Below are positions 2,976-24,324 of a stretch of 64,000 nt of DNA, piece after piece. Position 1 is the stretch's first letter. Each line of letters starts with the position of its first letter. A model generated the notes under the pieces. That model saw only the letters and a program-made list of their open reading frames with translations. It ran no database searches and was not told the DNA's origin. Source of the DNA: a virus. Lineage: Duplodnaviria > Caudoviricetes. Made by a program: the position numbers and the translations under genes. The DNA lies in the IMG/VR virus record IMGVR_UViG_3300037067_012588; one strand, given 5' to 3'.

Positions 2976-3038
2976 AACACACCTCCTTTTAATAAAAGAT
3001 GTATTATAAAAGATTTATACACTTTTATCATAAGTCCT
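2976..3038 (-). promoter_or_regulatory. AT-rich leader of the endonuclease gene (TATAAT-like box and RBS)
   Basis: Minus strand reads GTGTATAAATCTTTTATAATACATCTTTTATTAAAAGGAGG. Confidence 0.4.
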
Positions 3039-3104
3039 TCATATACAACGATTATCAGAATCACACCAAACCCAAACCTCTAAGTAAAAAGTGTACCCCT
3101 TCAT
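3039..3104. repeat. 66-bp direct repeat, copy 2
   Basis: Encodes the last 21 aa and stop of ORF 3039..3407 (MKGYTFYLEVWVWCDSDNRCI*). Confidence 0.95.
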
Positions 3105-3407
3105 CGAGGTATGGAAATTTGGGTAAGGAGTAGTACAATCATTCTCATAATATTGACTTCCAATGAGTTTTCCTTGTGCCCACAAGTGATTGTGATAATT
3201 TGGCTCATAAATTGCCCAATCTGAACAACCATATGGAGTAATTCCAGACAAAGAATTCAAAACCAAAGCTGGAGAATCATCCTTCATCACAAAAGAATAA
3301 ATCATTGTCGGATTCTCGCAATCTGCGCATCCACATTTGCACGAAGTTATCCTTATAAAATCGACAACCTCTTGGTCGAAACAATCTGTCAAAATATTGT
3401 TGGACAT
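3039..3407 (-). CDS. Cys-rich hypothetical protein
   Basis: GAGGA RBS, CKCGCADC motif, same strand as neighbours. Confidence 0.6.
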   Translation of the reverse strand: MSNNILTDCFDQEVVDFIRITSCKCGCADCENPTMIYSFVMKDDSPALVLNSLSGITPYGCSDWAIYEPNYHNHLWAQGKLIGSQYYENDCTTPYPNFHTSMKGYTFYLEVWVWCDSDNRCI

Positions 3408-22124: not shown

Positions 22125-23520
22125 TTATGCGTACACAATGTCCGGGTCACTCATGATGTGCGGCGGCATCAACGTGCCAGTCGAAGTCGTACAACGACCA
22201 CCGAGACCCTTGATTGTAAACGCACGGGTCGTCGGTTCGCTCTGACCCTTCAAACCGAAATCTTCCGACTCAACAACAACAGCAGGCAGCTCAACATAAT
22301 ACATGTTCGGCGTCACACCGTCCGCACGAACGCCCTGAATCGCAACACGGAACACAGTGTTCTGCGCATACAGGAAAGGATTGTCAGGTGTTCCAGTGCC
22401 AGGAGGATTCGGACCAATGATCGGGTCAAGAACACCTGTCGGGTTGAACAGCGTTACGTTACCAGAAGCACTGATAGCACCCATCAGAACAGCTTTTGCC
22501 TCACGAGAACCACCACAAGTATACATGATGTTGTGATTGTTATTACGTTCAACACTCCAATCCATAACAGAAAGGTCACTTTGAATCGTTGTCCCACCAA
22601 TAAACGGCTCATACGTTGACGTGAAACCCGTCAAAAGCTGTGCATTGGTACGCCAGAACGGAATCGGGTCAGTGTTACGACCCGAAGGATTCAACGGGAA
22701 CGTCTCAGCCAACTCAGCACATGTCGTCACACCCGTAATCTGTTCGATATATGGCTTTCCAGCAGAAACGTCTTCTTCACGAGTCAATGCAACCACCCCA
22801 ATATCACCCGTCACCAAACTACCTGGCGAGGTCGACATCGAGACACTTGTACAGAATGCACCACGGTTGTCAAAAGCTTGCGGCGAGCCACCTGTCGCCC
22901 AATAGTGATAGACTCTGTTACCATCAACAGAAATATCACAAGAACGAGCATAAGCACGGTTGTATACGCCCCACTGACGAATCGTTTCCCAAAGATTCGC
23001 ATTACCCTGCCACTCAACACTCACAGAACCTTCGTACCGAATAGCTCCATCAGCATAGTGAGCGGCTTCTGGTGCATTGAACCAACCAGCACCCCAGACT
23101 GCGCTGGAATACAGCGGTTCAAGCGTCAAATTCACGCTACCTCCTGTTGCCAGCAACAAAACAGGGTCACTCGGAGGAACGGGGGTTCCTGCGAACGGCG
23201 TTCCAAGTGTCCGGAACACTTTTATGAAGCCCATGTCACTCTGTTACTTCAGCCTTTCGGCTTACTAACCACCTTTCGATGGCGGAGAGAACACTTCGAT
23301 TCTCTCTCTCCCCTTTATAAAAACAGGTATGGGGGAGTTCAGACTGTCGCATACACCAACTCAGATACTTGACTCGTCTAAGCCTTTTCCCTGAGTTGTG
23401 CCTCCGGCACTCAGTCGTTCACGCTGCACGGTTTCCCTGCTTGCGCCCTGTCGCCCGCTGTTCGGGCTTCCAAGTCAATCAGCCGAAGTTGAGATGGGCC
23501 ATCATCTAGCCCATAGACAT
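22125..23520 (-). CDS. tail tube-like protein (paralogue 1), spliced: join(23520..23508, 23236..22125)
   Basis: AGGAGG RBS precedes ATG 23520. The spliced product starts MSMGYMGFIK, matching GYLG/GYEG in the paralogues. Contains YEGSVSVE, PGSLVTG, PIPFWRT, DWSVE. Confidence 0.75.
23237..23507 (-). ncRNA. group I self-splicing intron (271 nt, no internal ORF)
   Basis: P1 ATGGGCT/GGCCCAT with U-G at the splice site; P3 CTTCGGC/GCCGGAG; P5 GCCCG/CGGGC; P7 GACTG/CAGTC; P8 AACTCAG/CTGAGTT; GAAA-capped 3' hairpins; terminal G. Confidence 0.88.
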
Positions 23521-23534
23521 AATAAAATATCCTC

Positions 23535-24324
23535 CTATTTCATCATCCGAAAGTATTCGTCGAAAACATTTTTCTTTCTTCGGAGGCAAATTCCTCCCAC
23601 ACCATACGCAATGTTATAAAACTTTTTTGTACTCTCGATACTCGAACACTCAATGTTTCCGCAAGTGTTCCGAACCTTGAACGCACTCCAACCAAAATAC
23701 ATCCCAAATTTCTCCCAGAACGTGTTTTGAATTTGTCCAAGAGGGTCGATATGCCCAGTTATTCTAACTCGTAAACGTCCATTGTGAATGTCAACACACC
23801 CATCACCGTCAAAAAAACCACGAATGAAATGGCAATATGTGTTCTCTCCCATCAATGGTATCCTGAATCCATCTCTTCCTTTTCTGCGACAAAGCCCACA
23901 GGATTCGAACTTCTTCTTGATTCTTGCTGGAATTGTTATACGGAGATTATCTCCTATGTTTCCCAACAGAGATACCACAAATTCCTGCTATTTCACAAAC
24001 AAGGTCTCCATCTTTAAGTTCCAACAACAGATTTCCACCAAGACTTCCATCAGCACAACAAAGACCAAAAAGATAAGACTCAAAATCAGACAAACCTATA
24101 GAGCTGTTATTATCAACAACACAATTAGCCCTTAAAAACGTCTTTTTTCGACAACGAGTTTGAGCTATCTTTTTTGCACCATCAATTTGGCATGACGAAT
24201 AATAACGATACCTACCAATAACCTTCTGAGGAACAAAAATTCCTTTCAAATGCCAATATCGAACAACCGTTGTTGTTACTCCAACTGAAGATGCAAAATC
24301 TCCAATCTTCAATTCTGCATTCAT
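23535..24324 (-). pseudogene. MerR-type HTH + double-motif LAGLIDADG homing endonuclease, split by a frameshift
   Basis: First frame (start 24324): LKIGDFASSVGVTTTVVRYW...YRYY and SYLFGLCCADGS. Second frame: HFIRGFFDGDGCV...LRRKK. The frames overlap at 23947..23978. Confidence 0.75.

Follow-up and report, generated by a model that had tools for sequence, protein, structure and literature searches.

The splicing chemistry of group I introns is well established, as is the role of an in-frame stop codon at the splice site (PMC3984707). LAGLIDADG maturases and host splicing factors are known for such introns in bacteria and phages, and translation affects the splicing of the introns of phage T4 (PMC3984707). 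Group I introns in phage structural genes are also a known kind of element: orf142 of Staphylococcus phage Twort, which carries three introns, was later identified as coding for the tail-tube protein (PMC11878797). A further precedent concerns mobility. In cyanophage S-PM2 an ORF-less intron of psbA and the free-standing F-CphI make up a system of collaborative (trans) homing (PMC3984707; PMC6083498).

Here we describe the 5' end of a tail-tube-like gene located on the minus strand of a 64,000-nt stretch of phage DNA, hereafter referred to as the window. It comes from a giant phage, whose contig is ~345 kb long according to the cluster record. Sequence comparisons make it highly probable (about 0.88) that the gene is interrupted by a self-splicing group I intron and that this intron is a member of a mobile family, with a free-standing homing endonuclease encoded upstream.

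The tail-tube-like gene and its proposed splice sites

The features of the locus, in the order of transcription, are as follows.

24324-23535, minus strand: free-standing homing-endonuclease gene (MerR-type HTH and two LAGLIDADG motifs), recognized by Pfam and PHROG, directly upstream of the tube gene
23536-23531, minus strand: Shine-Dalgarno sequence AGGAGG of the tail-tube gene, evident from the sequence and overlapping the stop codon of the upstream endonuclease ORF
23520-23508, minus strand: exon 1, 13 nt, comprising ATG, codons 2-4 and the first base of Tyr5; its last 7 nt are the 5' strand of P1
23507-23237, minus strand: predicted group I intron of 271 nt, with no ORF, no P2 and a terminal G at 23237, delimited by a leave-out profile, covariation and the intron-less alleles L140 and L141
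23500-23494, minus strand: internal guide sequence (3' strand of P1), covarying with a Gly codon across the window and relatives L139, L142, L143 and L144
23236-22125, minus strand: exon 2, the remainder of the tail-tube gene; the spliced product would have 374 aa, and the database call starts from internal ATG 23234
22106-21288, minus strand: downstream tail-tube-like paralogue of 272 aa that begins MLGYLG, lies outside the intron and is the origin of the "GY.G" comparison made in an earlier, sequence-only reading of this DNA

That reading had described an AGGAGG, an ATG, a 13-nt exon, a TAG stop, a U.G junction and an intron end, and every one of these elements was found, on the minus strand. 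The AGGAGG is separated by 10 nt from the ATG at 23520. In the unspliced frame this ATG opens the sequence M-S-M-G-stop, the TAG straddling the 5' splice site. The end of the exon (23514-23508) and the guide (23500-23494) form a P1 of 7 bp with a U.G pair at the junction. Downstream of the terminal G23237, exon 2 opens with AC followed by the ATG at 23234, from which a 369-codon ORF extends to 22125. Excision of 23507-23237 joins GGC-T to AC-ATG and results in a protein that begins MSMGYMGFIK. The gene start had been said to be missed by ORF callers, and the database call (protein P0001, MGFIK...) indeed begins at the internal ATG 23234, five codons late. Inspection of the sequence revealed no good Shine-Dalgarno site ahead of this ATG.

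The last 7 nt of exon 1 recur in exon 2 at 23234-23228, as had been pointed out for ATGGGCT. The exon-2 copy is a by-product of the M-G-Y-M-G peptide and may be a competitor for pairing with the guide. With 1-2 bp in the window, P10 is weak there if it exists at all; it was rejected as a conserved helix, since it amounts to just 1-4 bp that are not conserved among introns at the same site.

Sequence matches of the interrupted gene to tail families in Pfam and PHROG are weak; Phage_tube_2, for example, scores 16.9 bits against a cut-off of 27. An AlphaFold model (pLDDT 77) was obtained from alignment A3 of the homologues. Its best Foldseek matches are the tail-tube proteins of P74-26 and T5 (E-values of 1.5e-10 to 7e-7, TM-score ~0.5), with 8ed0 (E 1.5e-10), 8xan, 9iny and 5ngj at the top. 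The predicted fold justifies the designation "tail-tube-like" and points to the duplicated-domain type (T5 pb6 / P74-26). Tube proteins of this type are normally seen in non-contractile tails. In this case a T5/P74-26-type tube protein belongs to a phage contig of ~345 kb, and a shorter tube-like paralogue lies directly downstream of it.

A search for database homologues of the tube ORF yielded 142 proteins. The N-termini of the best 120 of these 142 are almost uniform and read M-[G/A/S]-M-G-Y-[Q/M]-G-F; in A3, the first five columns, M-x-M-G-Y, are at least 90% conserved. The N-terminus predicted by the sequence-only reading, MSMGYMGFIK, thus agrees with a motif, M-x-M-G-Y-Q/M-G-F, that is near-invariant in ~120 homologues. 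The closest relatives of the window gene are intron-free. They read MAMGYMGF (L140) and MSLGYMGY (L141), and their DNA is contiguous precisely at the position where the window gene is interrupted, with the joined M-x-M-G-Y codons present.

Database entries that start with MGF.K (P0002, P0009, P0010, P0012 and P0013) all have an upstream gap of ~350 nt, and these gaps hold a homologous intron at the same position (L139, L142-L145). All five of these independent same-site introns end in G, after which exon 2 completes the Tyr codon with two bases. For L139, L142, L143 and L144 the contig includes the 5' end of the intron, while the L145 contig starts within the intron. In these four, the Gly codon that precedes the splice site takes the forms GGC, GGG, GGA and GGT, and the guide base facing its third position is G, C, U or A, respectively. 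Across the window, L139 and L142-L144 the pair beside the U.G wobble is C-G, G-C, A-U or U-A. As the third base of this codon changes synonymously, the guide base changes with it and, therefore, P1 is maintained by compensatory change. Together with the uninterrupted L140 and L141 alleles, these guide changes support both the splice sites and the P1 put forward from the window sequence.

One homologous tube-gene intron, in L146 (915-1210), is located one base upstream, after codon 4 (phase 0), between Gly and Tyr, and has the U.G pair and the terminal G again. Compared with the other introns, both splice sites have shifted by one base between lineages. Database proteins that start with M/L/V-Y-Q-G (P0025, P0051, P0088 and P0120) would fit calls that use the last three bases of the intron (ATG, TTG or GTG) as a start codon; this was confirmed on the DNA for one of them, P0120 (L146).

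These data bear on a reading that involves no splicing at all, in which the interrupting sequence belongs to a structured 5' leader, MSMG is an upstream ORF of four codons and the tube protein is made from ATG 23234. That gene callers pick 23234, and that Rfam gives no match (see below), is what such a leader would lead one to expect. However, the lack of a good Shine-Dalgarno site speaks against initiation at 23234, the five residues that would be lost are those conserved in at least 90% of homologues, and covariation of the guide with synonymous codons would be purposeless in a leader. In addition, members of this RNA family are found in the middle of capsid, terminase and NrdD ORFs. We consider the leader extremely improbable.

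Fold and family of the intron

Folding of a 306-nt region gave a better energy than 100 out of 100 shuffled sequences (z = -3.8). A profile built from 39 non-redundant family members, from which the window sequence and its closest relative L139 were left out, matched 23491-23237 end to end with an E-value of 1.6e-37. Structure pairs were counted in an alignment of 41 sequences (A2). In it, 95.1% of cells are paired under the deduced structure, compared to 74.5% for shuffled and ~42% with slid partners, and 37 of the 50 pairs have changes on both sides, the P3/P7 pseudoknot included. The order of elements is P3, J3/4 (7 nt), P4 (4 bp), J4/5, P5, J5/4, P6/P6a, J6/7, P7, J7/3, P3', P8, J8/7, P7', P9 and three more hairpins. 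They are positioned as follows.

23488-23482 with 23408-23402, minus strand: P3, with compensatory changes in 7 of 7 pairs; encloses J3/4 through the 5' strand of P7
23474-23471 with 23450-23447, minus strand: P4, covarying, also in L146
23467-23463 with 23457-23453, minus strand: P5, with compensatory changes in 4 of 5 pairs
23446-23421, minus strand: P6/P6a, with compensatory changes in 5 of 8 pairs
23417-23412 with 23346-23340, minus strand: P7, whose fifth pair covaries (A-U 30, G-C 6, U-A 4, C-G 1)
23401-23353, minus strand: extended P8, with compensatory changes in 4 of 4 pairs; a long P8 is common to same-site introns
23352-23347, minus strand: J8/7, matching the Rfam consensus
23337-23241, minus strand: P9 and three further 3' hairpins (two with GAAA loops), with a conserved GUAACAG before the terminal G; helices 7-9 covary

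Since all seven P3 pairs and the variable fifth pair of P7 covary, the pseudoknot is supported. The guanosine-binding elements of P7 and J8/7 (R and S boxes) match the Rfam consensus strings, and their columns are invariant in A2. P3, P5, P7 and P8, which the sequence-only reading had listed, could all be assigned, with compensatory changes in A2 for P3, P5 and P8 and covariation of the fifth pair for P7. The GNRA hairpins it had mentioned correspond to a GAAA loop at 23435-23432 and two more in the 3' hairpins.

Two candidate elements were discarded. A circularly permuted P4-P6 domain, with a hairpin before "P4-P5" and no P6, is ruled out by the 4-bp P4 (23474-23471/23450-23447), which covaries in L083, L093 and L146 and makes the helix order canonical. 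A 3-bp extension of P3 (ACU with AGU) is unsupported, one subfamily having AAC or AAU there. The second bases of J3/4 and J7/3 (columns 12 and 103 of A2, positions 23480 and 23410 of the window) change jointly: G/G in 27 sequences, A/A in 12 and U/G in 2. This could reflect a tertiary contact or merely the existence of two subfamilies.

An Infernal search against the Rfam group I model had been suggested as a check, and for the window's copy it was negative. No RF00028 match was found in the window at the gathering threshold, nor in its 551-nt region at E-values up to 10, and the same-site relative L144 is likewise without a match. The best-scoring family member, L137, which is located in nrdD, matches the full RF00028 model with 38 bits (E 2.2e-8), below the threshold of 50, and the resulting alignment gives the same helix assignment, P3-P4-P5-P6-P7-P3'-P8-P7'-P9. 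With the Rfam result negative, identification rests on covariation across the family and on this sub-threshold match of one of its members. Taken together, the sequence data place the element among the genuine group I introns, in a divergent phage lineage.

The family is large. Two conserved strings retrieved 63 and 98 IMG/VR loci, and the leave-out profile detected at least 177 family copies in the fetched environmental phage loci, up to four per locus; a profile search of the 64,000-nt window revealed no second copy in it. By blastn, 75 nt of the core matched GenBank record MW202674, where the matching segment separates the two parts of a P22-type coat gene. Four phage records in all were matched by blastn, MW202674, Desulfovibrio phage 7757 (deposited twice) and Roseobacter phage CRP-118; no T4 or Twort record was among them.

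ORFs that flank representative members code for major head proteins (three PHROG families), large terminase, portal, tape measure protein and the anaerobic ribonucleotide reductase NrdD and are interrupted in the middle. Most members of the family are in capsid, terminase, portal, tape-measure and NrdD genes, and some contain HNH (HNH_3) or LAGLIDADG (LAGLIDADG_1) ORFs in peripheral loops. The generalization with which the window's intron had initially been compared, that phage group I introns are found mainly in DNA-metabolism genes, fails for this family, which prefers late structural genes.

Several other loci of the family are of note. In MW202674.1 (L001, 2940-3205) the annotation divides the P22-type coat gene into two CDSs and includes a "hypothetical protein" (3005-3124) that lies inside the intron; judging from P1 pairing, the first CDS is annotated ~45 nt past the 5' splice site. 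Loci L083, L059, L067, L087, L088, L093, L112 and L127 carry 3-4 copies within a few kb, several of them in one capsid gene. Canonical group I introns, with RF00028 scores of 55-81 bits, are present on family-bearing contigs (L044, 2464-2673; L121, 2103-2389; L108, 1085-1351). In L134 (10269-10901) and L089 (1677-2225) an MptE-like ORF (PF01973, E 1e-21) is located just 3' of the family core in a capsid gene, being either intron-internal or the next gene.

RF00028 thus misses an intron family that is represented well over a hundred times in uncultured phages, and counts of introns in viromes are, therefore, underestimates. Alignment A2 and its structure could seed a new RNA model.

The upstream endonuclease gene and proposed mobility

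The endonuclease gene is located between a gene for a 176-aa protein and the RBS of the tube gene and is split into two overlapping ORFs. The first, 24324-23947, contains the MerR-type HTH and the first LAGLIDADG motif; the second, 23978-23535, contains the second motif and matches LAGLIDADG_3. The two motifs are thus in two frames and not in one intact chain. Both ORFs are colinear with intact proteins P0121 (262 aa) and P0122 (269 aa), with 70-78% identity. Relative to these two proteins' genes there is one extra base near 23950-23955, a mutation or an assembly error. The frameshifted endonuclease of the window may be inactive. A programmed -1 frameshift at GGGAAAC was considered and discarded, because the order of the frames is opposite to that needed for -1 slippage and a single base separates the sequence from its intact homologues. 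A GGGCTA repeat that flanks the endonuclease gene was likewise considered as a target-site duplication and was judged a chance match, since its upstream copy belongs to the normal end of the adjacent gene.

Alleles that carry the intron repeatedly have an endonuclease gene directly in front of them, in different states. L147 has the intact gene (P0121) followed by RBS, exon 1 and intron, and the P0051 contig has an intact MerR-LAGLIDADG ORF of 282 aa. In L142 only a homologous HTH ORF of 75 aa is left. In L139, an 85%-identical relative, the intron is kept and the endonuclease gene is absent; L143 and L144 also keep the intron, the ORFs upstream of it belonging to no Pfam family and no endonuclease gene being recognized directly upstream. 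In L146 this position is taken by an unrelated gene of the LAGLIDADG_2 family. The occurrence of intact, frameshifted, truncated, replaced and absent endonuclease genes, and of the empty sites in L140 and L141, is the pattern expected of a homing cycle. As far as sequences can tell, it is also compatible with collaborative homing, where the insertion site of an ORF-less intron is attacked by a free-standing endonuclease (PMC3984707).

In L147 (2395-2500), and also in L148, a duplicate of the last ~75 nt of the endonuclease gene is found directly 5' of this gene, together with the RBS and 17 nt from the start of an intron-less tube gene. The intron-less-type junction in L147 forms a mini-ORF, MSMGYIGK, whose stop codon overlaps the ATG of the endonuclease gene. 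The duplicate looks like the footprint of an endonuclease copy that landed a few bases 3' of the intron insertion site.

The mechanism that we propose is as follows. In the precursor RNA, the guide would pair with the last 7 nt of the 13-nt exon 1 to form P1 with its U.G wobble. A free guanosine bound in P7 would attack after U23508, and the released exon would then attack after the terminal G23237. The resulting ligation would link the RBS and true start codon to the body of the gene, leading to MSMGYMGFIK... On unspliced RNA a ribosome would halt at the TAG across the 5' splice site, and ribosomes would thus be kept from the ribozyme core, as has been described for other phage introns. The intron itself would be a selfish mobile element of a large phage family, with no endonuclease of its own. 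Judging from the arrangement of genes alone, the upstream LAGLIDADG enzyme most probably targets the 5' end of intron-less tube genes, and intron and endonuclease gene would spread jointly by co-conversion (collaborative, or trans, homing). In the window's genome the endonuclease gene would have begun to decay through the single frameshift.

A genuine group I intron need not be autonomous, and the copy in the window might require a protein, be it a host chaperone or a LAGLIDADG protein with maturase activity, or might be inactive. Such maturases and host factors are known (PMC3984707), P2 is absent, P10 is weak and the endonuclease gene is frameshifted. Yet the core helices and conserved joints are all intact, the family profile matches end to end, and the interrupted gene is an essential structural gene. 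L139, L143 and L144, moreover, retain the intron with no recognized endonuclease gene directly upstream. We therefore think an assisted or inactive intron very unlikely, and favour self-splicing.

The position of the intron raises another alternative, that splicing acts as a regulatory gate, competition between ribosome loading and P1 formation timing or limiting tail-tube production. The 5' strand of P1 occupies coding positions +7 to +13, which an initiating ribosome covers, the same architecture is present in at least six diverged phages, and in T4 translation does affect intron splicing (PMC3984707). The layout from RBS to ATG is common to L139, L142, L143, L144, L146 and L147. Against a gate stand the patchy presence and absence of the intron and the decaying endonuclease genes, which are the signature of a selfish element. 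Close relatives, in addition, make the same protein intron-free, which makes a selfish origin the simpler explanation. A gating function thus appears unlikely.

A broader reading of the same sequences, which we put forward tentatively and regard as doubtful, would treat the endonuclease gene, the RBS, the 12-13-nt exon 1 and the ORF-less intron as one composite mobile cassette at the 5' end of the tail-tube gene. It would have acquired endonucleases from at least two unrelated LAGLIDADG lineages in separate events, every stage of homing would be represented, including the one-base slide of the splice sites, and splicing would perhaps have been co-opted as a timer of tube synthesis, P1 overlapping the translation-initiation region.

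The locus provides a natural series in which to study the cooperation of a free-standing endonuclease with an ORF-less intron: the site may be empty, hold the intron by itself or hold it with an endonuclease gene that is intact, frameshifted, truncated or replaced by one of another family. The kind of element is known. What makes the locus moderately interesting is the unrecognized intron family, the fact that this family prefers structural genes, and the range of endonuclease and intron states.

Comparison with described introns

The introns of Twort orf142 (subgroup IA2) are, like the one in the window, small group I introns in a late structural gene that codes for a tail-tube protein. The two systems differ in layout, the three Twort introns being in the body of the gene and the single intron of the window 13 nt from its start. 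They also differ in structure: Twort introns have P7.1/P7.2, typical of IA2, whereas the window intron has neither P2 nor P7.1/P7.2. A blastn search against phage records revealed no sequence similarity between them.

With the T4 td and nrdD (sunY) introns and with RF00028 the window intron shares the core, J6/7-P7 and J8/7-P7' being nearly identical to the Rfam consensus. Like the window intron, the td and nrdD introns have an in-frame stop near the 5' splice site, and some members of the window's intron family are, as the T4 nrdD intron, located in nrdD. In contrast to what RF00028 describes, the window copy has a 7-nt J3/4, a 4-bp P4 and no P2, and obtains no reportable score.

A parallel to the proposed mobility is provided by the S-PM2 pair of psbA intron and F-CphI and by related cases. 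Compared to it, the window's enzyme is of the MerR-HTH-LAGLIDADG and not of the Endo VII type, its gene is frameshifted, and its cleavage of the target is a prediction. The window's endonuclease gene is, in addition, only ~30 nt away from the intron insertion site, because exon 1 is 13 nt long.
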